A stretch of 60,703 nt of DNA, counting the filler, from Catajapyx aquilonaris (Eukaryota): NCBI GenBank assembly GCA_000934665.2. It is 2 parts of 2 records of this genome, joined end to end, with 100 filler letters (N's around TTAATTAATTAA, not from the genome) between each part and the next. Parts side by side here need not be neighbours in the genome. Positions count along the whole stretch, not along the records: positions 30,415 to 60,703 come from KZ539189.1; 1 more part is not named here. One strand, written 5' to 3'. Shown here in pieces: positions 8,650-53,017 of this stretch. The translations under genes were made by a program, and so were the position numbers. The notes under the pieces were generated by a model, which worked only from the letters and a program-made list of their open reading frames with translations, made no database searches and was not told the DNA's origin. Position 1 is the first letter of the stretch. Every line of letters begins with the position of its first letter.

Positions 8650-9278
8650 ATGATCACTTTGGCCCTACTAATTGCAGTCATTGTCACTGTCGGTAAGTCT
8701 CGTTTTGGACAAAATATTTGTCGTTGTTCTATAGTCCATTAATAGTGGAGCAAATATGTGACCCTCAGATGCAACAAACAGCAGCACATTAGATCCTGAG
8801 CAGTTGTACGTGAAGGTCGGAAGCACTGTGCCATTGCACTGCTCCTTGGACCGAGACGAGGCTGACACCGGTCATATCGTTTGGTACCACGGGGACTCCC
8901 GGATAGGCAACGCTTCAGATGAACGGATCACTGCTGAATATGGGGCTGAGCATAACAGAACGGTGCTGACCAGCGTCTTGCGGATCAGTCGCGTAAGGCC
9001 CAGTGACTCCGGAAACTACACCTGCTCACTAAGTAGCAACAGCAGCACCATGGCCAGCTTCGTCCTTCATGTCTTGACAGGTCAGTTGACAACAAGTCTA
9101 CTGACACCTGATCTGTACATTAATGGTGCTTATTTTTTTCATCCTTCCAGGAGAAAGCCCTGCTGTCGTGCATCATTCAAATCATACTCTTGTCAGCATC
9201 TCGTCGACTGTACATCACAATCTGCATACTCTGTTTGCATGTAGTATTGGATTATTAATTATTATGTTGATTTTGTGA
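8650..9278 (+). CDS. Single-Ig-domain cell-surface protein, Dpr-like (second Ig domain only), probably GPI-anchored, about 160 aa
   Basis: Exons 8650-8692 (signal MITLALLIAVIVTV), 8769-9080 (LYVKVGSTVPLHC..IVWYH..LRISRVRPSDSGNYTC..LHVLT) and 9151-9278 (GESPAVV...hydrophobic tail FACSIGLLIIMLIL*) join in frame (483 nt). Confidence 0.85.
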
Positions 9279-12895: not shown

Positions 12896-15800
12896 TTAGG
12901 CATAGTAACCTGGAGAGAGCATCATATCAGCCAGCACTTCCAGCTGATCCTCTGAAAACTTCTTCTTGTGCTCCTGCCAGTTGTCTTGATGAGTATGCCG
13001 AAACTCATTCAGGGTTTTTGTGATGGAAGGCTGCAGAGAGAGAATCACTGCGGTTAAACATCTCAAATTTATTTTATTTTATTTTCTACATCCCACATGT
13101 CTTATCATTTTGCTGACTGCTTTACTGAGAAAATTAAATACCTGGCAAGGCAATGTATGTGGAAAATATTTCACAGATAAAAGTCACAATAACTGTCAAA
13201 AACACCCAAGCCTGCATAAATATTACCATTTTAAATATTGAAACAGTAATATACCACCTTGCCAACTGGCTACTATTGTACTATAGCAGTGGGCTGAAGC
13301 TGGTGACAATAACAAGCCACTGTAACACCTACCAGAATGGGTTCTGGATCATGCAGATGGTCACCCAAGACCATTATAATTTCAGGTACAATGTCAGGTA
13401 CACTGTAAGGGTGTGCATTCACAACAGCACAGAGGCCCAGGATGCCCGAGTGCCTCCGGATCACAGCCTCTGAGTTGAGCTTCCCATGCATCAGAGGCAC
13501 CGAAGCTCTCTCCCTGAAGGTGGTCTAATTAATGTGCACAAAACACGTTTCATTATTCAGACATCAGCATGCTTTGCAAATGAAACTTTTCACAAAATTC
13601 GATGTAGCAAGTAATCAATATTAATCTTCTCTGATGAACCTTGTCTAACATTAGAGTGAACCACTGCAATGTCAATGCATGAGCCAAGATGCGTAAAACC
13701 ACACTGTAAATGTAACATGGATCATGTGACATGAAAAATGTCCTTCGCATACCAATAAATCCTGGGAGATGGGAATGAACTTGCAGTGCAGCATTCCGGA
13801 GAGGACACGTTCAGCCTTGTTGCGAACTTCCAAGCTCGGGTCACCCAGCAACTCAAGAACTACTGTCTTCACAGAGGTCATCCATTCCTCCCGGCTTGGC
13901 AACAGGCATAAATTTTTGAAAACCATGACCTCCATGTACTCCAGGATAGAAGCCCGGCAATGCCATGAGGGGCTTGCTGCCACCTACGTTTCATCAGCAA
14001 TTTACTTTCAAGCAGTTCAAGAAACACGTCAACTCACTTACCTCCTTGACAACCCCTAGGACATTGCCCACTTGTTCGGGAAGCAGCCGTGCTTGTGCCA
14101 AGCAAGAAATTGCAGAAGAGCAAATATCGCCCACCTCTGGATCAGTCTCATGATTTTCTAACCCACAGAGTATGGGGAGGAAGCTCCAGAAGTAAGGTTT
14201 GGCACCTTGGTACGCTTGCTGAAAACTATCTGCGATCCACTTGCCCACTGCGGCAAAATGGGTTGTGAGTTTCGTTCCTGAAAAAAGTTGCTATTTTTCT
14301 TACCTGTTTTCAGAAGAAGAAGGGCTGACTTTCTCTCCCCTTCATAACGAGGTGATGTCTTCCCTTCTGGCACACATGTAGAATTACTGTCTGATGAGGA
14401 GCATTCCGATGAAGGAAAAGCTCCACCTGATTCTATTAACACAGCCAGTTGAGGGAACAAGGCTTCTGCCAGTGCAGCTCCATGTGGGCCTCGACTTGCT
14501 TGTCCATGAGCATATGTAACATCATACATAAAAATGTTTGCCAGCACATTGCTAATCCCCAGTCTCGCATTCTGAAACGGGTGTGCCAGGTGGGGGCGCA
14601 AGTGGTTGAGGAGGCGCCCAAGAAGCTTTTCCACACGCCACATTTGCATATTGAGTGCCACTTGCAGCATATACAAACGACTAAGAAAAAAAGTACACGT
14701 GAAGAATAAGCAACAATAAGTAGGCCAACGATATGAACCATTGCAACAAACCTGGCCTCCACAAAAGCTCCCTCTTTTCCTGTGAACAGTTCTTCCATCA
14801 ACAGCTCCAGAAACCAGTAAATGCGGTTTGGATCTCTTGAAATCTGTCATCAATTGGTTCACATTTAGCACTAACAACTTGAAACAATAACATGGTGTAA
14901 CATTCGTATGTTTCTATGTCAGGAAAAACTTTTACAAAAGTAATTATTTTTTTATCATAGCAATAATGCTCTCAACACATGTTATGAGGGCGAATATTGT
15001 CAATTGCAAAATCAAACATGAGCCATTCCCTTTCTCCATAAATAAACAAAAATTAAAATTCCACGTGGTTGACTACAACACTCACAGAGACTTTGCCACA
15101 GCAACTTCCCCAGTCACATATTGTTTCAGTGGTGACATTTGCCATGGCCACCTGGATGATGGGGACGAGGATGCGCCACATCTCTTCCACTTTTTCATAC
15201 GGCCAGTGTTTGGACCCCCGAATCAATCCAGACAGAATCTCGGCTGCACATCTCTGGCTGCTCTCTGACTGATCAGCAACAAGCCGCTCCAAGTGAGGAA
15301 CAAACTTATCAAGAAAGGAGTTGCCAAAGTTTCGAAACAATCCCTGTAATAATAATAATAATCAGTAAAGGATCATTTGTGACACATGAACATAAGCAGT
15401 AAAACTACCTTGAACATCACAAACCGTCCATCATCAAACTTGTCTTTTCCCTTCTCCTCTTCAAGTGATAAGAAAGTTATCAATTGATCCACATTTGACT
15501 GATCAGTAAAGAAGTTTTGTATCTCCCTCTCAGCAGGTGACATTTCATCTGCTGTCCTGTCCAGTTTGGGTTGGTCCCCAGATGGAGCATAAATCCCCAG
15601 ATATCTGTTTCGGAGAAAATCAACAAAATAATGGCCAGCATAAGGGTTAACCAGTAGTCCTGGGCCTGACTCAGAATGAACAAATCGAAGGGCATAGACT
15701 GCAAAAGGATGGAATCAGAGACACGTCCCACACATTTTACTAAATATTCGTATAATAATGTTGGAATCGTGAAATTGTGAACTTATCTCTGGATCAAATC

Positions 15801-18800
15801 AAGATGCAATCACTTGTGAGTTACCAACAGAAGACAAAAAATTGACAATGTCCAGATCAAAAATAACTGGTACATTGTTTATGCATAATTTTTATTGAGG
15901 GCCATCCTTTCTCAGGTATGATGCGTACTTGCATCTTGACTCAAATACTTGATCCATCTGTATCTACATCCATTTGTCTCTTTCTTTCTATTGCAGCCTG
16001 TATACTGTACCTTAGCTTTTTTAAAAAAAAATCAGACTTAAGCATTTTTGATAACCTATTGTCTTCAACAGCTATTCTCACCGTGGCCAAGTATAATATC
16101 CATAGTGGCCCTTGTACAAGTAGAGAGGTGAATCCCAATCCTTCGGTGACCTGGGGAACCTCTTTTCGTCATATTGAAGCCATTCATTGTCAGGACGAAG
16201 CCCTGGATTTGGATGAGCGTTTGAAGAATCTCCTGACACATTCATGGTATGTGGATCCACCATCTTTTTTGAATGCGGGCGTTTCAGTTGCATGAGGACG
16301 AGTGAAAATCCATGGGTGGACATCTGGAATATAACAAGGTCTCAGGCACATGTTCAACTGCTACGACAATAGCATCTCACCTTGCGGATGGCAATATCAT
16401 TATGAATCAGTCCTTGCAAAAAAACCTGAACTGTTCCAGGAGGAAAGTGGTAGTCAGATCGGATCAAGAGAGACAGGAGAGAATATGCAGAACTTTCATA
16501 ACACCGGTGCCTGCGGAAAAAAAGACGTCCGTGTGTTAAGGAATATTACACTGATCAAACTAGAGGAGAGAAACATGAAGGTCATATTCTTCTTGAATGC
16601 AGACCCAGCCAATGTGATGTACTGCAATAATTTTACCAGCCAGATTTATCCAGTGTTAAGAAGTAGATCGGAAAGGATATGGTCCAGACCCATATGTAAT
16701 CTCTAATCAAGATTATTTTTGTCAACTATTGTTTGTTTTAAACTCCCAATAGTACAAACTCACAGTTCTCCAGAGTTGATTGCATCAGTCAAGTTCCTCA
16801 CGAGGGATTCATAAGCACTGATGTTCCTTTTACCATTCTCCTGCAGCTTACTCTTGCCGTCAGCCACTTGCTCTTCAGAAGGGTACAGCACATCAGAAAT
16901 AGTAGCCAAGAGCTTTTTGGCGGCTGAACTAGTCGCCTCCGACATCTGCATGGAAGATTATATTTCATAGTCAGCAAGTACTTCACTCACAGTCAGTGAT
17001 AAGTCATACCCGGATTTCAATGTTGAACGTATCCCAATAATCGGAAATGTCTACAATGGCATCTGCAAGCAGATGCACAATAGAGGGCTTCTCTGTGGGA
17101 GGTGAGGAAAGCAACGCAGGCCACAAGATGCTCAAATCTTGCCAGTTTCGGCAAACCAACATGGAATCTGGATCCTTGCCAATGGCAACAAACATTGCTC
17201 CCTGAAGAAAATAAAACATGATGCCACTGTGCAATGGAAGGTAATTCATAACACACGCACCTTGAGCTCTTCATGTGTGTGAGATGGATCACGAAGGAAA
17301 TGGACAATTCGTGGCACCATGGTACGGTATGAGTAAGGGTACCTGCTGAAGCATTCTTGAAGAACTTTCTGGGCATGGGATCGGATCTGAAATTGGGAGC
17401 ACATGAGCATCGTCCATCGAGGCAAATCAACTGGGCTACCAAACCTGTGAATAGCGGGAGGTGGCTAAATCCAATAGGGAGTTCATGGTTGACAAATGTG
17501 ACTCAGTGAAAGAGTTCGCAGCTGCCTCAAACAGGCGGGTCTCATGCTGGATATGAACCCGTTTGATTAGCAAGGCACGGCTGTGCTTCTTTTGTCTGAC
17601 CAGTTCATTTCCCAGGGCACGCTTCATACCGTAATAATAATGTTGGAGTGCATCGAAGTCCTCTTCGGTTAGGCCAGACAAGCGATACAAGACACTAGCA
17701 TAAATCTGAAACAAATCATTACTACTGGTGCACTAGAATCCCAGAAACAATATATGCTCACTTTCAGTACAAGGTTCAGAGACTTGGTGTCATCCTGAGC
17801 ATGAAGCAACATTTGCTTTTGCAGACGCTGCATCAGATAGAGAATCTCTTGGCGAACATTCTTACCAGATGATGTGGTCAGCTTAGTGTTATTACATTGG
17901 ATGCAAAGCTTAATGTTGTAAGGGTTCTGAACACAACTGTCAACTACTGCTTCCAGTGGGTCATCCTCTACCCAAAAGGGCAGCAGAGAACTGCAGCCAG
18001 TTATGAACTGCATTATTATTTTCAAGCTTTGCTGTAACTCTTTGCAGGTCAGGAAAGTGGAACCTTCTTCTGCATCAGTTATGTGTTTCTCAATGCGTTT
18101 CATTTCAGGTTCCAAGTAACGGTGAAGAAGATCCTGGCAGAGTTTAATTTCCTGCTCTGATGGCACGTGCCAGTCAATGTGAAGACGCTCGATATCACCA
18201 GTCCTTCCCCAGTCCTAGAAGCAAATCAAAGGGTTCATCCTGGTTGGGACAATAAGGGACAGTCAGTTACCTTCACATAATCATACTCCTCAGGTTTTCT
18301 ATCAAAGCCCTCAGGAAGACTTCGGTATTCATTGGGAATGATTCTACTTAAGCTCTTCAGGACATTTTCAAGGATGTCTGCAGCAACCTTGGATCCATCC
18401 ATGGAGGTCAAATGGAGCACTTTGTCCAGTACTTGCTTAATCAATGCTTCATAAGGGAGTAGGAAATTTCCTGAACAATGCACAATCTGTATGACAAATA
18501 AAAATTAGTATGTACATCCTTTTTGCAATACTTCCCAGTATAAATGTTACCTCATATGTCAACTGCAGCTTAAATAGTAACTCAGGATCTAGGTTCTCTT
18601 CTTTCACAGCATAATCATTGTCAAGCAGTCCCAAAATTGTGCTGCATGCTGAGGGAAGCAAAACCTTCAGGGAGATCTCAGGTCGCACCTGAAATGATTA
18701 TTATTCATCTGCAGTACCACTCAAAGGTGTTACGTCGTCAATGGCAGTGTTTGGAAAGTATTCACCTACCCTAGCTAAAGCGTAGCATAAGTTTGCCACA

Positions 18801-21800
18801 ATCTTTCCTGCCACTTTTGTCTCCAAAATTCGACCGGATATAAATCCCTGAACCTTATCAAGGGCAACCTGATAGGTATGGATAGAGACATGTATTAAGA
18901 GACTGCTGCATAAAATTTTGGTCATGCGCAAAAAGTATGCGGAAAACACTGGTAATGTAATATGCCATCATTTGTGAAAAAACACGCTAAATTGACATAC
19001 TGTGGCACACAATGCCTAGATTACTTGTACAGTACTCTGAAGATAAGGTCATTAGGGTCTCACTCACTTGAAATACTGGAAGAGAAGCTTGAGACAACAT
19101 AGTGAAAAATGACAAAGCAATGCCATTATTCATCGCATATTCCTCTGAAGTAGGTTCATCCCTGGCTGACATGGACTCCAACAAGATCCTGCTCTCCACC
19201 AATGCAAATGTCTGATCCAGAAATCGCAACACAAACTCCTTGAAACCTGCAGTTGACTCATACGTAGCTCTTTCATAATCATTAGTGGCTGGAAAAGTGG
19301 GACATAAGCAGAAAGCAAGAGCAATGCAGTTGGGCCTTACCCTTGTCAGCCAAAGCAGAGCAATCCACGATAGGAACTAAGGAGAGAGAAACTATTATAA
19401 ATTGACACACGGCAATGCATCTTGATGTGTCGTTGGGGTTGATCCCTGGCAGGATCGCCATCAAAAGGGGCATCAGGTGGGAGGGACCTTCAGGATACGT
19501 CCAGTTTTCTGTTTCATCCACCGCTACCACAGAGCAATTTAGTGGTGGATCTACGGCTCCTCCACTGACCATTGCTCGCAAAATGAATGTAGCACATTCA
19601 ATTGCTGCAGTTAGGCGATGAGGTTCATTCACCATATCCAATGCCAAATGCAACCTATGATGAGAGAGAAAAACTTGCACAACTCCGCAGGAAGAAATAC
19701 TCTTGAGGCGTTCATTTTGTACCTGTCCAACACTGGTGGTATGATCAGGCTTGGTCGCAGACAAGCCAAGTTTCCTAAAGCCACAGCTGGACCAAGAGGA
19801 CCCAACTGAGAAAACATCGCAGAGAGAACCAAGGGCTTCAAACTCATAACGAATCTAGTGACATCACTATCCGTCAATGGAGTGGCATGTAGACGAACAT
19901 CCCAGGAAGGCTTTCTGTAGCGCTCACTACAAATTCAAATATGATTAGTAGCCTCTTCTCTCAGTCTTGAGAAATTGCTCATGCATATTTATTGCGAGGT
20001 ACATGTGACATAATAGTAATATCATCTGCAGTTTGAATGTACAGGCCTGTAATTTGCACCTAAGCTTTAGGTCACTGGATTTTCACGAATTTAACAATGA
20101 TACATTCACCTCTACTAATGGCAATCCATCTGCAATACTGAATTGGCATGACTTTGACTTACAGTCCAACTTTTACAAAAAGAAGTGCCCTCCCATGCCC
20201 TCCTTCTCTAAGCACTCAACGTGGTGTTTTTGTGCAACTGCGGCTAATATGTACTGTTATGTTACACATGTTTTTAAGGGATCTTATTTAAACGAGTTTA
20301 TGCAGTAATGCCTCATTCTGTTTCAGTCATTTTTACAGACTTACTCGTGCAAACGGTCCACAAAGCAAACAGTAAGGTTTGCCAGGAACTGCTGCAGTTT
20401 CTTGCACCAGGAGCCGTAATTCGCTGGATGAAAGTATGTTTCCAACGTTGCCAACATCTTCTCCAAAAAATCCTGGCTGCGACTGCCATTTCCCTATTGA
20501 GAAGTACTCCGATATTATATTAAACCTCTTTCACTGGTTTACATACTTCAATAGGACTATTATGATGTGATTATTGAGGGAAATGTAATACCAGCTGCAG
20601 AGCCTTTGCATTACCCTTTTCGTCCTCTCGAGTCACTTACAGCAACTGGCACGCCATCAACATACAATATTTACATTATAATATTGCTAAAAGCTGAGTC
20701 TACAGTATACCTCAAGATTTTGCTTCTTTTATATGTACAACTCAATTACAACCTGCATGTTTAATCTAAGCTATGTAAGAATTTATTTATGCTTACCAAA
20801 GTGTGAACTATAAAGGTGGTAACCATACCGGAGCTCGCTTGATGTGCTATTTTAGAGTGTGATTTGTAGGCAACTGGGAGTCCCATTGCATTCAAAAAGT
20901 ATGAATACATCCTGGGAAAGTAAGGCTCCCAGTCCACTGCATCTGGGTTCTCGCTAACCAGATGAGACAACAGAGAGAAGAAATTTACTTCCCAACTTGG
21001 AGCGTTATGGCAACTTTCCCACAAGTTCTGCAGATCTGGAAGCCACAACTTGAAAGCATCTGGGTGGTGGGTGGGCAGAAACAACACCATGTAGTAAACC
21101 GCTTGGGCCATAACTGTACTGAAAGGGCACAACAAGGGACGCCATTCCTCCATCATCTCCTTTGTTGAATCCTTTGGGAAGTACCTGCAAAACAGGAAAA
21201 ATTTTAACTGCCACCCACGTTTTACTTTGACTGGTGCAATGGATCCTTGGACAATTTCCTTTTAGAAAATTGTTAGGCACCCCTGGGATCCACTGAACTC
21301 AAATGCACGTTGGACCAATGTGTTTCACAAGCAATTATGCCACTTATGCCATTGATGTCCCACCCCCCACCAACACTAATGACCTTTGTGGTTAACAAGG
21401 TGGTCAATTATCTGGCAGGACTTACATTCGGCACGCCCTGATTGCATTTCCCAATGTTTCAACGACCTCCCTGAAAAATTAGGACAAATAGTAGTAACAA
21501 TAACATAGAACTGCAATGAATCAATCTGTTCCAACTCACGGTTGGGTCAAAAACATCCCGTTACGGCTCTCTTTATCATAAGTGCACTTCTTGAAAAGAA
21601 GATACAGAGGTCGCCAAGGGAGCTCCAGATCTTCTGGAGTGAGGAGCTCAGTCTTTCTAAAAGCGAAGAAAAGATTATAACAATAAACACAATCATTAAC
21701 TTTTCTGGCAGTAGCAACAAACACACAAGTCAAAAAAGAAAAGGCAGCACAGACATGAACTTGAGGAATAATGCAATAAAAAAACAAGCTCTACATGTCT

Positions 21801-30221: not shown

Positions 30222-30582
30222 CAGGGTGAATACTGTAACTTTGGCAAAAATCACAGGGTGGGTAGTGTGGACCAAGACAAGTATTTTTGACATAGAAACC
30301 CATGTCCGGAAATGNNNNNNNNNNNNNNNNNNNNNNNNNNNNNNNNNNNNNNNNNNNNTTAATTAATTAANNNNNNNNNNNNNNNNNNNNNNNNNNNNNN
30401 NNNNNNNNNNNNNNCGCACTCACTCACTCGATTTGTAAACAGTGGCAACAATGGAAGCACTCTCCATGTGCTGATGTTTGAATTGGCCCGCCGGACGGGG
30501 TTGCCAGGGAACGGGCTACAATATAAGCAGCTTAGGCCGAATTTGTCAATAACTAAAACGACAAAAAAGTTTGATCACCCTG
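30222..30582. mobile_element. Tc1/mariner-type MITE ends flanking an assembly gap
   Basis: TA-CAGGGTGA ... TCACCCTG-TA. 30415-30582 nearly matches the right arm of the element at 47084-47448. The two ends may belong to different copies. Confidence 0.6.
30315..30414. other. Assembly gap with an artificial TTAATTAATTAA spacer
   Basis: 44 N + TTAATTAATTAA + 44 N gives exactly 100 bp. Confidence 0.9.
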
Positions 30583-30769: not shown

Positions 30770-32280
30770 TGTAGGTGACGAGGCGAGATTGTGCCACTGT
30801 TTTTTCCAGTTTCCCCCGATTATTTCCATGATTTTCATGTGTGACAGTGATGGGAAGGTAGACGTGGAGAAGATCTGTCAGAAGCTTTGGCAGAAATCAT
30901 GGCTAACATGCTGCGATGAAAAAAGAGTAGATAATTGGATGTGAGCAAAGGGATCAGACGAGGATTACTGCAGCTAGCGCCACGGCGACGAAAGAGAACA
31001 CTGAACCTGATCGAAATGGAGCGTCAACTGGAGAATAAAATCGGATGGCTTATGTCCGCGAATGTCAAACTGGGTGGAGGAAGGAAAAAATTAATATTAA
31101 TGCATTTTTTCATAATTTTGAGCCAGTGACTTGGACAGATCTTGCGCGTCATCATAAACCATGTGTTTTATCAAGATGAATGAATTCAAGGGTGTCCTTG
31201 AAGTGCTTTTAAACATAACGTGATTCATAACTGGGCATTTTTATTGACGACTTGCCTCATGCTGAGGAAGAAACAGCCTTTGTTCTCCACGACCCATTTA
31301 AAGCAGTCCATCCCTAATATTACCTTCAGTCTTACCAGTAATACTGTCAAACTGGGTGAGATGGTGCCACATTTTGAGGTTTTTCTTATGAGCAAACCAG
31401 AATAATTGATCTATTGGAACGAAATTTATATGCAGCATTATTTCTGCATCAACTGCAATGTCACTTAAAACCACCCACACACCACCCATAATACCACTGA
31501 AAAATAATTGGGCAGAGTAGCCGACTCATGGTATGTTCCCACGAAGTGGCTAAATAATTATGCATTATGTTCCCTCCCCAAAAATCCCTATCCCTACCCT
31601 ACATCCTTGACTCCTTGCACCGGTGAATGAAGTTAATATATGAAAATGGAGTGAAATGGTGGTATTCCACCCCCCTAAAAAGGCTCAGCCTTATCACGGG
31701 GTAACGTAAAAATAAAAAAATAAAAAAAGAATAATAATTATGCATGTGATTAGGAAGGGACTGTATTAAATGTGTCGTGGAGAACAAAGACGGTTTCTTC
31801 CCCATCATGAGGCAATTCGTCAATAAAAATGCCAAGTTATGAATCCAGCGATGCTTACAAGCACTTCAAGGACACCTCCTTCCCTTCCTTCACCTTGATA
31901 AAACACACTGTTTATAGTCACATGCATGATCTGTCCAAGTCACTGGCTCAAAATTATGAAAAAATGCAATTGCATAAATTTTTCCCTTCGAAAAAGGCAG
32001 CCGTACGTGGGCCATCCGATTTTTATTTGTCAGTACCTCTGTCGCAGTCGGTTCGATCAGGTTTGATGTTCTCTTTCGTCGCTGCGACTATATAGTGGAG
32101 CTGGTTGCAGCATTATTTTTGTTACATCCAATTATCTACTCTTTTTTTCATCTCAGAATGTTGAACTTGAATTTCCCCAAAGCCTCCCACCGATCTTCTT
32201 CAGGTAAACTCCTCTCATTACTGTCACACAAGAAAATCAGTGAAATAATGGAAAAAACAGTGGCACAATCTCTCCTTGTC
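30770..32280. repeat. Long diverged inverted repeat (foldback-like)
   Basis: The arm at about 30770-31310 is the reverse complement of about 31755-32280 (GAGATTGTGCCACTGTTTTTTCC versus GGAAAAAACAGTGGCACAATCTC; GGTGTCCTTGAAGTGC versus GCACTTCAAGGACACC). Confidence 0.75.
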
Positions 32281-35727: not shown

Positions 35728-35906
35728 TAATACCAATATTTAAGTGGCAGACAAGTGTGTCCACCTGCTGAACTACCATTCTCATGTTTTGTTTCTGCCA
35801 AAAACTGCATCACAGTTCTATCATATTGAATGTCCTTTGTAGCTATGAAAAGACAATGTGAGGGATCACATGCTAGATGGTGCTCCCATTCTAAAAAATT
35901 TGGTTT

Positions 35907-38366
35907 TGTAGTGTCCAGGCAACTGGCTGTTGATGGTTGCCTGGTCACTGCATTATTGATGTTGTTGACTTGTTGGGTAGTTCGATACTGGCCGTTCTCC
36001 TGATCGGACACTGTGTAGTTGTTGTCCTGAATACAGTTCCAAACTGGTTCTTATACCCTTCCCCGTGTGTTATTCTGTGGTGTGTCTGACGTACTCATCG
36101 TGGGGCACTACAAATTGGTGTCAGAAATTGGGATAGCGAAACCGCCGGTTCGGAAGTTGCGAGGAAGATGGCATTCCTCGATCAGCTGAGAGCCATTCTT
36201 GGGGAAGAGAGGTGCGGCAAAGCTGAAGAGAGCTGTGGAGCCAGCCAAGTACATTGGAAGGATGTATTGGTGGAAGGACTGAGGCGCAGGATGGAGGCCA
36301 GCAGGGAGGAGAGAACTCCGGGTAGGTGGCAGGGAAGCAACGGGGGTCGAGTTGGAGACTACCAGGCGTTGCGAGGTGACCACCTGCCCGATGGAAGAGC
36401 ATCCATGGAGGAGAAACTCCGGAGAAATATGCGAGGCGAGTTCGTGATGCGGATGCAGATGGCCGAGGAGGCTGATCGTCAGAGCCACGACGAGGGGCTG
36501 CAGGCCTGGGAAGACGAGTTGTCGCGCAAGTACTTGGAAGCAAGGAAGGCGATGTTTGCGAGAGTTGCTGTGTTCCAAACAAACCGGAAAGAGCCAATGG
36601 AGCTAACTGTGGAGCCAACAATGAGGGACAAGGTGACGTTGCCACAAGACAGCGAAGGAGGCGGCGAGTCGACGTTGCCAGACAACGGCAGAAGGGAGCT
36701 GTCGAGATGGGACACTGGGACGTCCGAGTGTGGGGCCAGCCAGGACAGAGCTGCTGAGTTGGAGCTGCCGATGTCTGGCTGGGAAGGAGTTGACAGCGGG
36801 GGGAAGGTGACCTCTACTGTTGAAGTGACCAGCTGCAGGGGTTTCCAAGAGATGGGAAACCCCAGGAAGATTCCTGACATGGTCATCCCGGGATTACGTT
36901 TACCATTCGTTTCCGGGGTGGACTTGCTGCAGGGGAATCGTGCTGGAGAAGAAAGGCTACATAGCTGCATCGTCGTGATGGAGGGCAAGGAGGGGCCCAG
37001 GTGCGATGGTACTGTATCGCAGCCAGCGACGGAGCAGCCAGAAGGTGACTATGGAGAGACCAGGGGTGTGACCAGGCAGGACATCGAGGCGGAGATGGAG
37101 CTGGCGATGCCGAGCCTGAAAGAAGGCTGTACCGTCGCAGCCAAAGAGATGGCCAGGTGCGACATGGGGATGCTGCACCTAGTGACAGAGCAGCCAAAGC
37201 GTGAAGCTGGGGAGCCCAAGAGTGAGGACAAGGAGGACATCGCAGCGAAGATTGAGCTGCCGGTGTCAACCAGGAAAGAAAGCTGCACTTTCCCGTCAGA
37301 GGGTAAAGACGAGGCCCTGGTGCGAGGAATGTTTGCCGCACCTGTGGTGATGGTGATGCTGATGCTGATGGTGCTGGTGATGTATTCGTCAAGATGCTGC
37401 AGAGAACCAGATATCATGCAGGTCCAGGTGCCAGCGACGAGAGATCTGGAAACCGGCGAGAATACCTTGAGGCCAAGGAAGAAACGACCGAAGGCAGATG
37501 ATCCCGTGACTTTGCTGTTGCCAACGCAGGCTGATGAGGGTGAAGATGAAGAGGCTACTGCGAAACAGAAGAGGAAGGCGAATGTCCGGTGCCGGGAAGA
37601 GGATGCCGAAGCGTTGTACCATCCAGTTGGGGGGCAAGAAGATGCTGGGGGGATTCGAGAGGAGAGCCTACTGGAGAAGCACTGTGCCCACCAGGCTGAG
37701 GAGAAGAGTCTGGAGAACGAGAATGACCCAGAGATTGGTGAGCAAGCAGATGCAGATGTTTATCATGAAGAGACTGGTGGTCAACCTGATGCTGAGCGTG
37801 AGAAGTCTGGTGGTGATGCTGGTAGTCATGCAGATGCTGGTGGTCATGCAGATGCTGGTGACCCAGAGAAGCCCGTAGAAGACGAGCTGTGGGACGACAC
37901 AACGGAATGTGACCTTGGGAAGCTCCTGAAGGAAGTTGCAGAGGGTGACAAGGATGAAGCTGCAGAGTTCACAAGTGGAGAAGCAGCAGCATCAGATGCA
38001 GAAGATCGTGTGCAACTGGAGCAAGAAAGAAACTCCAGCTGGAGAGGGCCAGTCTGGAGGACCTGGAGAAAGAAGAAGAAAAAGAAAAATGGGGTCCAGG
38101 CTGGAGGAAGAGGATTGTTGGAACGAGATAGTTCTAGTTCCATTTCTAAGGGGGGAAGAATGTAGTGTCCAGGCAACTGGCTGTTGATGGTTGCCTGGTC
38201 ACTGCATTATTGATGTTGTTGACTTGTTGGGTAGTTCGATACTGGCCGTTCTCCTGATCGGACACTGTGTAGTTGTTGTCCTGAATACAGTTCCAAACTG
38301 GTTCTTATACCCTTCCCCGTGTGTTATTCTGTGGTGTCTCTGACGTACTCATCGTGGGGCACTACA
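35907..38366 (+). mobile_element. Young non-autonomous LTR retrotransposon with Gypsy-like cis signals, 2460 bp
   Basis: 206-bp LTRs at 35907-36112 and 38161-38366 (TG...CA, one mismatch) and a 4-bp TSD GTTT. PBS TGGTGTCAGAA.TTGGGAT resembles the tRNA-Leu type. PPT AAGGGGGGAAGAA abuts the 3' LTR. Confidence 0.95.
36168..38165 (+). CDS. Uninterrupted 665-aa ORF of the LTR element, unknown function
   Basis: Fills almost the whole internal region and stops in the first bases of the 3' LTR. Acidic and low-complexity, with an internal repeat of about 52 aa, one hydrophobic segment and basic NLS-like clusters. No CCHC, DTG-in-protease context, YxDD or DDE motif was recognised. Confidence 0.7.
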   Translation: MAFLDQLRAILGEERCGKAEESCGASQVHWKDVLVEGLRRRMEASREERTPGRWQGSNGGRVGDYQALRGDHLPDGRASMEEKLRRNMRGEFVMRMQMAEEADRQSHDEGLQAWEDELSRKYLEARKAMFARVAVFQTNRKEPMELTVEPTMRDKVTLPQDSEGGGESTLPDNGRRELSRWDTGTSECGASQDRAAELELPMSGWEGVDSGGKVTSTVEVTSCRGFQEMGNPRKIPDMVIPGLRLPFVSGVDLLQGNRAGEERLHSCIVVMEGKEGPRCDGTVSQPATEQPEGDYGETRGVTRQDIEAEMELAMPSLKEGCTVAAKEMARCDMGMLHLVTEQPKREAGEPKSEDKEDIAAKIELPVSTRKESCTFPSEGKDEALVRGMFAAPVVMVMLMLMVLVMYSSRCCREPDIMQVQVPATRDLETGENTLRPRKKRPKADDPVTLLLPTQADEGEDEEATAKQKRKANVRCREEDAEALYHPVGGQEDAGGIREESLLEKHCAHQAEEKSLENENDPEIGEQADADVYHEETGGQPDAEREKSGGDAGSHADAGGHADAGDPEKPVEDELWDDTTECDLGKLLKEVAEGDKDEAAEFTSGEAAASDAEDRVQLEQERNSSWRGPVWRTWRKKKKKKNGVQAGGRGLLERDSSSSISKGGRM

Positions 38367-38670
38367 GTTTGAAATTTACATGTCTTTTGCTAATACCCAC
38401 AGCATATTTGGAATTGATTTATGACTAACTCAAAGCTTGACTTGCTAAAGTGCCAAATCCTTCCTTCCAGTCCATTAAATTTCTGAATTTGAAAGGTGTT
38501 GCTCTTTTTCTTTTGCAGAGGAGGTGGAATCTAGAAATGAAGGAAGAGACTGACATAAATATTGATGAAATTTCCTGCCTCAAAAATGATGGCATAGATG
38601 CAGAAGATAGCACTGTGGCTAAAGCAGGTATGATTATGGTACACATGTCTATAAATGAATGGCTCAGAAG

Positions 38671-40400: not shown

Positions 40401-42444
40401 ATTCACTAAATGCACGCATACGAGCTTGATGGCTGCATATCATCAGATATCATTGAACTTAGGGAGCATTCTGTTTGCTTTTGTGTGCTGATTGTGTGCT
40501 ACTGCAATCAACTGATTGATGCATTTAAAAGGAGCGTGGAAAGAGGGGGAGTCGTTTGAATGATAAGAACCCATCAAACGAGAGCGAATGCCAGCAAAGG
40601 CTGGACATTCTCAAATACTACAGGACGTGTCTGTAAGATGCCAACAAAATTCGTCCTAACGACGGCAATGTTGTAGCATTTACTTTGGGATGCAATCTGC
40701 TTCCCTCTCTCTCAGGACACCGGAAACAGCACATGAAGCAATTAAACCATCAGGAAATAATTTGAAGGCAATGAATGAAGAACATCATCTTATAGCTTCA
40801 ATTTGTCATTGTACCGCAGCAGGTTGGTGTAGGGGTTAAGGAGCCAGACTGCTAATCGGGAGGTCCTGGGATCAAATCCCGGGGCCGGCAACTCTGACCG
40901 TGGTTTTCTGTGGTTTCCCACGGTCCCTCCAGGAAAATTCCGGAGTTGTTTCCGTAATTAACAGGCCACAGCCGCTTCCTTCCATCCCTATCCCTTCCCA
41001 AAAAGCGAAGCAAAAAGTAAAAAGCAAAGAGTTCCTGACAAAAAAATTGGGATGAACTCCCCCCCCTAAGAGAGCCAATGGCTCTATCACGGGGTAAATT
41101 ATAAGTAAATTATAAGTAAATAAACTTGTCATTGTACTAAGCTATGTCGCTTGAACGATTTTGCAATGTGACAAAAATGTCAGTACAGCTGCAAAGGAAG
41201 ATTCCGGAAAGATGCGGTAGTGATCATGGTTTCGGACTACCGTAGTTCCAATGCGGAAAAAAAACGACTGTCTCAATGCAAGAGTCAAATATCTCTTCCA
41301 GTTCTTATTTACAATATTACATTGCGAAGATCCATGCCCAAAAAATGAAGGCAACGATCAACAGAAAAACAATATTCCTCCCCCTGCATCATCTCTTCTA
41401 TCTTACCTCCTACCCTCGTTGACTTTTTTTTGTGTTTTTTATATACTAAAGAATGTCGCTTGCCTCAAGCTCTTGACAGTGTGTTGTGCGATGGTGAAAA
41501 GTGGTTTGCAGATTAGGAGGAAGTCTAGTTAGTGTTGGCTGATCCGTCCTCTGCAAAGGGTAATAATAATTGACACAAAATACACCGAAATGTTGTGTCC
41601 TTTTGATTTCTAATAGTCACCAAAAAAACTATTATCTCTCACTTAAATCATGAACAGAAACAATGCCAAGTTTACACGATTCATTGTCATGGACATTCAA
41701 TCTAATTCTTCTGGGTTTAGAACTCAGCAGAGGCAGGGACGTATTGGGATATGGTGCAATATGCAGGCAACTCCTTTTAAGCATATATCAACGGTGCAGA
41801 GCATGAAGAAACCTTGCAGGAATTACAGGACAATGACGAGTCAACAAGGGTGGGAGGTAAGATAGAAGAGATGATGCAGGGGGAGGAATATTGTTGTAAC
41901 TGTTGATCGTTCCCTTCATTTTTTGTGCATGGATCTTCGCAATGTAATATTGTAAATAATAAGAACTGGAAGAGATATTTGACTCTTGCATTGCGACAGT
42001 CGTTTTTTTCAGCATTGGAACTACGGTAGTCCGAAACCATGATCACTACCGCATCTTTCCGGAATCTTCCTTTGCAGCTGTACTGACATTTTTGTCACAT
42101 TGCAAAATCGTTCAAGCGACATAGCTTAGTACAATGAGAAATTGAAGCTATAAAATGATGTTCTTCATTTATTGCCTTCAACTTATTTCCTGATGGCTTA
42201 ATTGCTTCATGTGCTGTTTCCGGTGTCCCGAGAGAGAGGGAAGCAGATTGCATCCCATAGTAAATGCTATAACATTGCCGTTGTTAGCACGAATTTTGTT
42301 GACATCTTACAGACATTTGTATTTGAGAGTGTCCAGCCTTTTCTGGCATTGGCTCCTGTTTGATGGGTTCTTATCATTCAAACGACTCCCCCCTCCCCCT
42401 CTTCCCACGCAGCCATCAAGCTCGTATGCGCGCATTTAGTGAAT
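40401..42444. repeat. Large, highly similar inverted repeat with arms of about 600-700 bp (foldback/long-TIR element)
   Basis: About 40401-41423 (excluding a SINE) is the reverse complement of about 41835-42444. Stretches over 100 bp are essentially identical (41130-41250 versus 42015-42135). Confidence 0.85.
40815..41125 (+). mobile_element. tRNA-derived SINE, family A, inserted in the left arm of the inverted repeat
   Basis: 12-bp TSD TTGTCATTGTAC. The right arm shows the empty site. Confidence 0.85.
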
Positions 42445-43443: not shown

Positions 43444-44373
43444 TCACAGAGTACTGGTTTCACCCTCTACCTGACCACGTTCTTCTTCTGCCGGGTTGCT
43501 GGCCTCCTCAGGCAGACCCTCATGGTCTTCTTTTGGTTGCGCAATACTAATCTGGTCCGGAAGTAAGGATTTTGGTCCTTGCTTCCCCGTGGGGTCAGAG
43601 GGAAGCATGATGCGCACCCTGATCCCCAGCACCCCCTGGCGCAGCAGGACATGTCTGGTGGCGGAGTCCACGTAGTCCAAGACGGGCTCACCGGAGGAGA
43701 TCATGAGTCCGTCATGGAACTTCATGGACTTGGCCCGCTGGCCCCTGAGCTTCCCGGACACGATGACCTCGCAGCCCCTGGCCCCGCTCTCCATCACGAA
43801 GCGGAGGACTCCGTAGCAGGCCCTCCTGACGGCCAGACCTCCGACCAGCTTGTATCGGAGGGACTCTGCCTGTGCGATGGCGCAGAGGCCCCTGACGGCC
43901 ACCTTCTCTGCGTACAGCTCGATGGCCCCTTCCGGGAAGTGGAACCTCTTCTGCACCACAGCAGTCAGCTCCCGGATCCTCCTCCCCTTCTCTCCCAACA
44001 CGCTCTGCGTCCTGGTGGCCATGACCTCTGTGCGGGTCGGGGTCACCCTCACCTCCACCCCAGAGTAGCCGTCCTCCGCCAGCTCACGGGTCAGGAACTC
44101 ATTCAGCTCCGCCCTGAACACGCCGTCTTGGACGAACTGGAATGATATTACAGCAATGGAAAGGTTGGGCATTGCAACAGGATGATTGCCATGGAATTTG
44201 TGCATGACAACTGGTTGCAATGGACAAACGAACACACAGGATGGTTTCATGCAAGAGGGGCACTTCAGCTAATGTTCCTCTCAGTATCTTCCCGTATCCC
44301 TTCCCCTGAGCCCCATCCTCACCTGCTTCTTCTTGTTGACTGGGTGGGAAGCCCTTCCTGCCAGGCTGGACAT
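43444..44373 (-). CDS. RpS3: 40S ribosomal protein S3 (uS3), divergent paralog, about 247 aa, 2 coding exons
   Basis: Exon 1 is 44373-44323 ([23 protein letters not shown]). Exon 2 is 44136-43444 ([30 protein letters not shown]...[15 protein letters not shown]...[13 protein letters not shown]). A minus-strand AATAAA lies at about 43393-43398. Confidence 0.9.
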
Positions 44374-45509: not shown

Positions 45510-46300
45510 GCATCACAATATGCATTACAGTTTGAAAAAAGTACCATAAAAATATCGAAAAAGAATGTCCCAATTTAAAAACCCTATAAGTCGAAAACTT
45601 GTAGACATATCTAAATGATTTAAGTTTTGAAATGTTAAGAAATGTCTGCAGTTTTGGTCTCACCTTAGTTTGCTTCGATATGAGCTTCATTTGTCGCTCG
45701 AGAAATAAAATAACAGACTGTATTCGGTCTCGAGCCAAACCCGATCAATCATATCTGGAGTTACCGTTGCGATCCTAATCCTAACCCCGTATGGAAGATG
45801 ACTGGTCTTTTACACGACAAACATTGCTTTTGATGATTACATGAAAAGTTGCCTCAAACAAACAAACCTGCCGTAGGAAAGTTTCATTTGTTCAGCCTCC
45901 CAGTGTGCGAAGTCTTTAATGAGAATTTTCGCCATGCCTATCCCCTCCAGAAGCCCAGATCTTACTCAAATGGACATTTTTGTGGAGATACATGTATGGT
46001 GAAAAGAATCTGTATCTCCATCACCTACGGGAAAAGATTGCAACGGTAACGCCAGACATGATATATCTGAGTTGGTAAGGCGCGACACCAATTACCATAT
46101 TTACATTTGCAGAGCGACAAATGAAGCTCATATCGAAACAAACTATAGGGTGAGACCAAAACATTAGACATTTCTTGACATTTCAAAACTTAAATCATGA
46201 AGATGTCTATAATTTTTGAGTTATAGGATTTTAAAATTGGGACATTCTTTTTCGATTTTTTTAAAACTTTTTTCAAACTTTAATGCATATTGTGATGCAC
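45510..46300 (+). mobile_element. Tc1/mariner-superfamily remnant with long inverted ends
   Basis: About 45510-45670 is the reverse complement of about 46140-46300. The internal CCCTCCAGAAGCCCAGATCTTACT encodes PSRSPDLT. A related fragment lies at about 59985-60090. Confidence 0.65.
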
Positions 46301-47083
46301 CTGCGACTTTTTGTGAATAAAAAATTAATATATCTTTACCAAGACGGTTGTTAAGACTAATTTTAAGACTGTACCGGTGTATGACTATAAATTCTTCAGA
46401 GAGACCATGTCGCCAAAATGTCGTAAAATCTAAAATTTTGAATTGTAGAGAATCTAGAGCTTACAGAGAAAAACTTACATCAGATTCGAATTCAGCATGC
46501 ACTCAAATTAGGTAAGAACAAAGTGCTAGTATCAATGACACAAAATATTTGTTGCCCAGTGTAATCAATCCAGACAGAAAATAATTATACAGACACAATA
46601 GTGTTACTGCCTGATTAAGGAGAAATTCGCCCTTAACTACTGTCATGAGGTGCTTTTTGACTCCAAGCTTACGGGAATTACAGTAACTTGACAATTATTG
46701 TCACGTTGCTGATTAATTACATGCCAAATGCCTATCTTTACCTAAGTTATGTGTCAATGTCTTTGAAAATGGGGGGGGGGGGAGATTCATGGCCCTCAAA
46801 AACAGCCATAATCACGGTGGGGTGCATCATTCTGGGGTCAAAAAAGACCCATGACACTAGTTACGTTTGGATTCCTCATTACTCTTGCATTCTTGTCTTC
46901 AAAAAAATTAGCCTCTTCTATATAATATTTCATTCATAAGATCATTGCATTGTTTTTTTCTTGACATATTTGAGCAGTTTTTGTAAGGCAATATGTTGCA
47001 AATTAGAGGCTATCGGCTATAGCTATAACTAAATTTGTACAGATGTAGCTATATAGATTTGTACAGATTTATAGATTTATATA

Positions 47084-47448
47084 CAGGGTGATCAAACTTT
47101 TTTGTCGTTTTAGTTATTGACAAATTCAGCGTAAGCTGCTTATATTGTAGACCGTTACCTGGCAACCCCGTCCGGTGGGCCAATTCAAACATCGGCCCAT
47201 GGAGAGCGCTTCCATTGTTGCCACTGTTTACAAATCGAGTGAGTGACGCGGACGACCCAGCGACAGGTCTCTTCTGCCTGCGCACTCACTCACTCGATTT
47301 GTAAACAGTGGCAACAATGGAAGCGCTCTCCATGGGCCGATGTTTGAATTGGCCCACCGGACGGGGTTGCCAGGTAACGCACTACAACATAAGCAGCTTA
47401 GGCTGAATCTGTCAATAACTAAAACGACAAAAAAGTTTGATCACCCTG
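47084..47448. mobile_element. Palindromic Tc1/mariner-type MITE
   Basis: TA-CAGGGTGATCAAAC...GTTTGATCACCCTG-TA with near-perfect arms of about 165 bp. Confidence 0.9.
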
Positions 47449-48202
47449 TATAGATTTATACAGATGTAGATATAGCTATGGCTATTAACTAAATTTGTAC
47501 AGATGTTCCAACTATTTAGTTGGAACAAATGTACAAATTTAGTTGCAACAACTGTATTATTTAGTTCCCATCACTAAACAATGCAAATAAAGGCATTTAG
47601 TACATGCAAGAGCTCATAACTTAGCTCTTGCAAGTAACTAAATAGTCAGTTGTCTTGTCTCTATAGCAACTAAAGTTCCTATTACAGCAACTAATTTTTA
47701 ATAGCTGCAACTAATTTTTTTTTCAGTGATTACCACCTGTAACTGTTTTCGTTTTCAAATGAAAATGGTGGGACACTGGTCAAAAATGGGGCCGGGGGGG
47801 GGGGGGGTATGATTAGGTATCGTTCATCTTTTGTTTCTCTCCCCCCTTCTCGCCGGTGATTTTTGCGTCATCTCATCATCTGCATCCCTCGACAAATGTA
47901 CATCGATAGAGCTTCAAAACGAGGTAAAAGTCATCTTTGTAACTTTTCCAGTTTTCGAATAAAACACGCGAAAATGAACCGCTTTTCGCAGGGGGGCTAT
48001 TATTCTGTCCAACCCCTTTATTTGGCTCGGGTGATTTATTGCCAGACTTTACCTATGGAATTTGCGCTATTGTGCGTGGCCAAAAATGGGATGAAGGTAG
48101 GTTGTTTCCTTGTTGACATTCTAATGTTTTGAAGCAGAGAAGGGTGGCATATAATGTAGCTGCGAAAATCTATGTCGTTGCGTATGCAGGCTATTAAATG
48201 AA

Positions 48203-52428: not shown

Positions 52429-53017
52429 CGACGCGGGGCCTTTGGAAAGTCTTTGCACCTTTTTTTGCCACAAATACAGGTCGCATGCAGGTCGGGAGAT
52501 AGGCACACATCGATAGAACCTTTCCTGGAGCCTAATGCGCTGGTGTCATGGTGTGCCAACCTCTCCAGACCCTCCAGGAACCACCTTTCGGTGGTTCGGT
52601 GCCCCCACTCCCGGACAACTGTTTGCAGTCAACATCAATGTCCTCGAAATGATGTCCACGAAGGGTTTTTTTTTTTCATGGATTTGAACAGGTGAAAGTC
52701 ACCGGGGGCCAGGCCGGGGGAGAATGGCGGGTGTGGAAGCTCTCAAAGTTGTTCCCATTAAAAAGAAACTTCGCAGACACCATTTCGAGGCCATTGTTGA
52801 CAGTTGTTTACTATGAGCAGTTGTCCGGGTGTTGGTGGGCCGCACCACGAAAAAGTGGTTCCTGCTGGAGGGCCTGGAGAGGTTCCACACCATGACACCA
52901 TAGTGCATTCGGCTCCAGGAAGTTTCTATCAGTAATGTGTGCCTATCTGCCGACCTGCATGGGCCCTGTATTTGTGGCAAAAAAAAAGAAGTGTAAAGAC
53001 TTTCCTAACGCCCATCG
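52429..53017 (-). mobile_element. Mariner-derived foldback element
   Basis: Inverted arms of about 200 bp flanked by TA. The centre on the minus strand encodes LPHPPFSPGLAPGDFHLF (mariner YSPDLAPSD motif). It is absent from duplication unit B. Confidence 0.75.

Follow-up and report, generated by a model that had tools for sequence, protein, structure and literature searches.

Non-autonomous LTR elements of the TRIM and LARD types carry cis signals only, and their interior is described as non-coding. The element analyzed here is like them in its non-autonomy and unlike them in a 2-kb frame that is held open across subfamilies. Its closest precedent is mouse IAP 1delta1 which, in the accessible portions of the reports, is also non-autonomous and internally deleted with one in-frame gag-pol fusion frame, and whose translation product was reported to aid retrotransposition in cis (PMC6466679, PMC7411935). 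In the same portions, IAP is placed among class II endogenous retroviruses, and its deletion is a single one of 1.9 kb (PMC6466679, PMC7411935), whereas the present family belongs to Ty3/gypsy. The present family differs further in having lost the capsid core, the zinc knuckle and all enzymes, and in a frame that is shuffled among subfamilies with a dN/dS of about 1.

Two other kinds of element also come close. The gag-only plant elements RLG_Quinta (PMC11302176) and TR-GAG have LTRs, PBS and PPT in common with an autonomous partner, an intact frame without RT or integrase, and recombination between lineages, as here; they keep a clear Gag that is thought to be supplied to particles, whereas the present family is without a capsid core. 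Non-autonomous Athila elements, again from a source available in part, are Ty3/gypsy elements with intact frames and recombination between distant families, as here, but their frames are under strong purifying selection and the present one, its first codons apart, is not (PMC2410132). Non-autonomous LTR elements with an intact frame are therefore already known. In a search of the main texts of mostly open-access literature, we found no description of an LTR family with an open yet neutrally drifting frame, and the combination of an open frame, no capsid core and drift was not found described.

We analyzed a 60,703-nt stretch of DNA from an animal, Catajapyx aquilonaris (assembly GCA_000934665.2), hereafter the window, in which N at ~30315-30414 join two contigs, C2600 and C2601 (128 N in the whole window). 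The element at 35907-38366, hereafter the window copy, is young and belongs to a non-autonomous LTR family of Ty3/gypsy. Its two LTRs are identical at 205 of 206 positions, with the sole mismatch at 36084, and every item of the cis set listed in the preliminary description (these LTRs, the GTTT duplication, a tRNA-Leu-type PBS and a PPT) was present in the sequence. The class assignment follows from the TG...CA LTR ends, the duplication, the PBS and the PPT, from the absence of RT and integrase, and from cis signals and remnants in common with an autonomous PR-RT-RH-IN element. The PBS complements the 3' end of tRNA-Leu(CAG) as encoded in the same genome; the pattern of that tRNA end had 11 genome matches, and a tRNA-Leu(CAG) gene was found in 2 of the 4 loci scanned. 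The motif AATACA, at LTR position 124, may serve as a poly(A) signal.

Table 1. Features of the window copy. Coordinates are positions in the window.
Feature	Coordinates	Strand	Basis or remark
Left target-site duplication, GTTT	35903..35906	.	Right copy at 38367-38370
5' LTR, 206 bp, TGTAGT...ACTACA	35907..36112	+	LTR comparison
PBS, tRNA-Leu(CAG)	36116..36134	+	Exact over 11 nt, imperfect beyond in the window copy
Stop-free frame, 665 codons, Gag start codon to Pol stop codon	36168..38165	+	Translation, partner comparison; ATG at 36168, TAG at 38163-38165
Remnant of the Gag N-terminus, aa 1-109, with start helix and a coiled-coil-like repeat but without capsid core or zinc knuckle	36168..36494	+	L068 Gag alignment
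Decayed retroviral-type aspartic protease, aa 164-259	36657..36944	+	DTG kept; alignment to autonomous proteases
Duplicated unit, copy 1	37019..37132	+	37053-37128 is an extra copy of protease N-half DNA
Duplicated unit, copy 2	37175..37288	+	37216-37284 is an extra copy of protease N-half DNA
Hydrophobic segment, TGGTGA-type microsatellite read as Met/Val/Leu	37326..37385	+	Missing in stop-free L039
12-nt perfect palindrome (38033-38044) in predicted hairpin	38033..38059	+	Family-conserved; overlaps basic C-terminal motif
pol 3' end	38110..38165	+	Polypurine tract at 38148-38160; stop codon within LTR start
3' LTR, 206 bp	38161..38366	+	LTR comparison

As had been described, a stop-free ORF of about 2 kb (665 aa) runs from past the PBS into the 3' LTR, where it terminates after 5 nt, its TAG being supplied by the opening bases of the LTR. 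Stops number 36 and 22 in the remaining two plus-strand frames, and none of 1000 shuffles had a stop-free stretch above 230 codons, so that the frame is far longer than chance would give. The hydrophobic segment, the basic clusters and the duplicated unit reported earlier are likewise all there. Pfam returned no family for the window frame, for its protease part or for three stop-free relatives. At E<=0.001 the frame matched nothing among near-length proteins or among 1.84 billion representative proteins, and it had no match among solved structures; the Atlas comparison of the whole protein gave low scores only (0.75-0.78). Because the Gag of an autonomous element from the same genome (L068) was also without a protein database match, these blank searches are no proof of novelty.

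We then compared the frame with autonomous elements of the same genome. Residues 1-109 aligned with the N-terminus of L068 Gag at 30% identity (E 9e-7), and the start codon lies at the same place behind the PBS as the autonomous Gag start. Residues 154-259 matched the protease of L062 at 47% identity (E 4e-18) with the DTG motif preserved; relative to the autonomous proteases this remnant has three gaps, two of 4 residues and one shorter, and the Atlas comparison assigned it to retroviral proteases (0.91-0.94). The N-half of the protease recurs at the DNA level at ORF nt 886-961 (E 5e-13) and 1049-1117 (E 6e-6). The final 17 codons match the pol end, and the stop falls inside the LTR as in the autonomous elements. 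One frame thus fuses the gag start to pol sequence through an internal deletion. The ORF had been called "non-gag/pol", which the Gag N-terminus, the protease and the pol end contradict. The reported absence of RT, integrase and zinc knuckle was correct, that of a protease was not, and the other option offered at the time, a drifted gag/pol remnant kept open for translation, is supported.

Compared with the autonomous elements, the window frame contained no RT, RNase H, integrase, capsid core or zinc knuckle, and it left the capsid/zinc-knuckle part of L062 and L068 Gag unmatched. For aa ~385-640 we looked for an origin in the genome and in nine loci that are autonomous or carry RT; the matches were confined to members of the family and to further non-autonomous relatives (L060, L070, L072). 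Derivation from an internally deleted gag-pol, which the preliminary description had set against its own interpretation, is therefore found, but not in the form of an end-to-end alignment, as aa ~385-640 are unmatched in the autonomous loci. Predicted folds were of low confidence both for the protease remnant (pLDDT 37.7) and for the positive control, L062 (pLDDT 30.8). A decayed element of 2.8 kb, L060 (G000:C3059), retains capsid-like and protease-like Gag-Pro sequence, followed by window-family blocks and the 3' palindrome; it is possibly an intermediate.

A search pattern combining the LTR end with the PBS had 51 sites in the genome, against 0 for a control pattern. Autonomous tRNA-Leu-primed Ty3/gypsy elements (L061, L062, L064, L068, L084 and L087) resemble the window element in LTR ends, PBS, PPT, 4-bp duplication, Gag start, protease and pol end, and unlike it they encode a zinc-knuckle Gag and PR-RT-RH-IN. 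Both L062 and L068 contain a gag and a pol frame, and their Pol runs protease, RT, RNase H, integrase; L061, related to L068, has decayed. All three have LTR ends, PBS, PPT and 4-bp duplications in common with the window family. An autonomous Gypsy partner with the same LTR and PBS had been anticipated. The PBS and the LTR ends agreed, but over its whole length the window LTR was only 51-58% identical to the autonomous LTRs. One copy, L033, joins a family interior to an LTR that is 83-85% identical to the autonomous L068/L064 type, as would be expected from co-packaging and template switching. From this partner-type LTR and from the many insertions with distinct duplications, we infer that the family was mobilised in trans by the partner.

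A DNA search of the genome gave at least 83 family matches, from 40 of the 119 candidates scored, and the family's LTR types were 65-98% identical to the LTR of the window copy. Thirteen elements had both LTRs, with L083 (rearranged LTRs) and L037, L040 and L044 (an end missing or not located) excluded from the counts. A 4-bp duplication was present in 10 of the 13; L038 had none, and the L032 pair has one in common. This pair (L032:600-5633, G000:C1644) consists of two family elements lying tail to tail, 24 nt apart, each with two different LTR types and flanked together by one ATAT duplication; it is either a dimer integrated as a unit, an inversion or a misassembly.

Out of the 13 two-LTR copies, 4 had no stop between the Gag ATG and a point at most 12 nt from the 3' LTR, namely the window copy, L038 (659 aa), L039 (821 aa) and L041 (624 aa). 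The other nine were interrupted, including L035, in which an otherwise open frame is split by a single later insertion. The L035 insertion, 1,358 nt with inverted ends at element position ~753-2110, is probably a DNA transposon. Frames were open in 4 of the 6 copies with 0-1 LTR differences (5 of 6 counting L035) and in none of the 5 with more (Fisher p 0.06 or 0.015), so the breaks look like post-insertion decay. The exception is L036, which has identical LTRs yet carries a private 28-nt frameshift. The open frames belong to different, diverged and shuffled subfamilies and are mosaics in which blocks have been duplicated, lost or reordered, so that domain order and content differ among open copies. 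These observations support the earlier claim that the family is non-autonomous, was mobile recently and maintains an open frame. The pattern that was to speak against that claim, most copies broken and dN/dS near 1, was nevertheless largely what we observed, on both counts.

We also noted a small separate family (L056, L063, L065, L067, L069, L070 and L072) with the same PBS and PPT, related blocks, an interior of ~620-700 nt and no single open frame.

To assess selection on the frame, we tallied the observed synonymous, non-synonymous and stop changes and set them against a random placement of the same base changes, a simple count in which the compared pairs were not independent and codons within 6 nt of a gap were left out. 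Ten pairs gave dN/dS values of 0.54-1.55 and no stops. Distinct variants pooled between stop-free frames gave 0.84 (474 codons), 1.07 (562 codons) and 1.05 (503 codons), and all variant classes within subfamilies gave 0.84-0.89. At similar distance, the control pair L068 versus L062 had values of 0.16 (pol) and 0.18 (Gag core), although L068 Gag against its decayed close copies also gave 0.82-1.12. With 0.84-1.07 against 0.16-0.18, the strong purifying selection of Gag-only elements was not found in this frame. The retained Gag part is unalignable between autonomous families and so may evolve fast anyway. Because some pairs fall below 1 (0.54 and 0.63, with 0.41 in the L035 group), there may be weak protein selection. 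The preliminary description had proposed ORF preservation and dN/dS as checks; 4 of 13 copies were open, and dN/dS was about 1.

The third check it had proposed, in-frame indel bias, came out positive. Interior indels with both states present in at least 2 insertions were in frame in 6 of 6 cases (a hand tally), while private indels, some of whose frameshifts may be assembly errors, comprised 29 frameshifting and 11 in-frame events (one ambiguous). The difference between shared and private indels had a p value of 0.001, or 0.006 when a shared 2-nt difference in the last six codons was counted; indels with each state seen once and an 83-nt event near the L032 junction were excluded from the tally. 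Variants private to other copies included 7 stops against 18.5 expected (p 0.002). Homologous blocks (66-92% identity), internal duplications included, lay mostly in phase 0 with short compensated shifts. At the level of the copies compared, then, transposing lineages avoid stops and frameshifts, not amino-acid change.

The explanation that we favor, and hold to be rather probable, is that the family is a gag-pol deletion derivative that is mobilised in trans and selected for cis translation of its own RNA. The copies themselves document its origin, its shuffling, its near-neutral amino-acid drift and the selection against stops and frameshifts in transposing lineages; the thing selected would be translation of the RNA nearly to the 3' LTR, not the protein. 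Autonomous tRNA-Leu-primed elements of the same genome would mobilise the family, an internal gag-pol deletion would have created the frame, and duplication and template switching would have reshuffled it. An early stop in the 2-kb interior would leave a long 3' UTR; translation almost to the 3' LTR would keep the 3' untranslated part at ~150 nt, versus up to 2 kb, and would shield the element RNA from nonsense-mediated decay (NMD). In Drosophila, long 3' UTRs mark direct NMD targets, and copia itself is not a direct target, according to the part of the report available (PMC3962487). Translated RNA would also stay in the translating pool that fills particles. For Ty1, the accessible part of one source proposes that translating and packaged RNA form one pool and that the RNA may require some minimal translation to be stable (PMC3945221). 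A further cis-acting contact, with helper Gag, may come from the short conserved N-terminal helix of Gag. Indirectly, private frameshifts and in-frame shared interior indels agree with a cis action of translation or its product on mobilisation, in which the family may work like IAP 1delta1. Against this explanation count the frameshift in L036 and the short PBS-sharing relatives with two LTRs and no single open frame (L056, L063, L065, L067 and L069), though the interior of these is only ~620-700 nt.

A more specific version, which we regard as doubtful, is a "ribosome runway". Here a nascent Gag helix of ~15 residues would hook helper Gag, and the 2 kb of shuffled neutral codons would serve only to keep the ribosome on the RNA to the 3' LTR, tethering the hook to its own RNA and shielding that RNA from decay.

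The main rival, compatible with selection for translation but in our judgment doubtful, is a cis-acting adaptor of the IAP 1delta1 type. In it, helper Gag would be bound by the Gag helix at the N-terminus of the nascent chain and RNA by the basic C-terminal tract, with a drifting linker between the two; the ribosome would have to reach the basic tail, and so the frame would have to stay open. The start helix is retained in all family copies and in the autonomous Gags. The first 20 codons gave a dN/dS of 0.23 (8 synonymous, 5 non-synonymous, p 0.008, uncorrected for seven regions tested), and aa 1-160 gave 0.59-0.64 with the window copy as reference, but the first 200 codons gave 0.85 and 0.98 with L041 and L038 as references, and apparent purifying selection is limited to the first 14-20 codons. 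The W-R/K-rich basic motif occurs in 5 of 5 stop-free frames, and the IAP 1delta1 fusion protein works in cis, as stated in the portions of the reports available (PMC6466679, PMC7411935). Against an adaptor, the capsid core and zinc knuckle are absent, the C-terminal 50 codons gave 1.26, and the frame varies among copies beyond the A-rich run, so that the exact C-terminus is free. Moreover, at its core the basic motif coincides with a DNA palindrome that 19 of the 24 copies with a located 3' LTR carry unaltered (hairpin z -2.6), and changes inside it are non-synonymous, which speaks for an RNA signal. Five autonomous loci were without the palindrome near their 3' ends. Together these data suggest that the palindrome and its hairpin may be a candidate RNA signal.

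That no selection acts on the frame, which would be open through youth, descent from a coding gene and T-poor sequence, agrees with the dN/dS of about 1, with the nine interrupted copies and with the fact that the window copy was chosen for being open. Yet the stop-free frames differ by 13-34% in aligned blocks and are shuffled wholesale, and they are still open and in phase. Four spanning pairs had 0 stops versus ~22 expected, and the broken copy L033 had 0 stop substitutions relative to the window frame versus 6.5 expected. The other frames of stop-free copies are full of stops (18-43), and shared indels are in frame. We consider this reading very improbable and already largely refuted.

More improbable still is the proposal, made in the preliminary description, of a new membrane-anchored or nuclear accessory protein with its own function. 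The hydrophobic segment is present in 4 of the 5 stop-free frames, the frame has no database homologue, and aa ~385-640 are without a match in the autonomous loci. The segment, however, derives from a microsatellite, is absent from L039 and gave a dN/dS of 1.22; a repeat resembling the same microsatellite lies at 37815-37860, where the frame reads it as Asp/Ala/Gly. Just before the segment, the window copy and L038 differ by a compensated 20-nt frameshift, the region downstream gave 1.87, and domain order and content vary among open copies. A conserved membrane segment under protein-level selection was thus not found, and the window element is most probably not a new accessory gene. Least credible of all, judging from the copies, is that the element provides its helper with a working protease or a poisoned Gag/protease, for although the D-T/S-G motif of an active retropepsin is there as DTG in the window copy, L031, L032b, L034 and L038 and the Atlas scores point to retroviral proteases, a full-length domain with a hydrophobic strand before the motif is not kept family-wide: the protease is truncated or lost in 4 of the 5 stop-free frames, has gaps, has lost the hydrophobic residues before DTG, has no Pfam match and gave a dN/dS of 0.74-0.78, not different from 1.

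The family separates the keeping of a frame from the conservation of a protein, which are usually coupled. If translation itself is selected, it offers a natural experiment on how the RNA of an LTR element survives surveillance and enters the particles of another element, a question that has so far rested on IAP 1delta1 and Ty1. Annotators, too, should take note: when a young transposon contains a long, intact frame without homologues, that frame is not necessarily a new gene, and an origin that escapes protein databases is visible in the element's own genome.

Several minor observations were made along the way. Odd LTR/PBS junctions occurred at L044:640-960, L073, L057, L060 and L076, in the form of copies arranged head to head or inverted, of LTR-end/PBS repeats in short tandem arrays, and of a tandem element with a common LTR. 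In the window, ~150 nt past the element, the stretch 38520-38628 (+) has a polypyrimidine-AG ahead and a GT behind and is a probable host exon, so the element may sit in sense orientation in an intron or 5' region. Elsewhere in the window we found exons of a PSME4/PA200-like gene at 14158-21261 (-), with a Pfam match for 17669-18214, and an immunoglobulin-domain exon at 8762-9244 (+). An intronless ribosomal protein S3 frame at 43444-44268 (-), with Pfam Ribosomal_S3_C and KH_2, is possibly a retrocopy. Long inverted-repeat elements of MITE or DNA-transposon type, some of them nested, lie at 40545-42392, 47053-47479, 31080-31989, 45510-46298 and 52460-52985.
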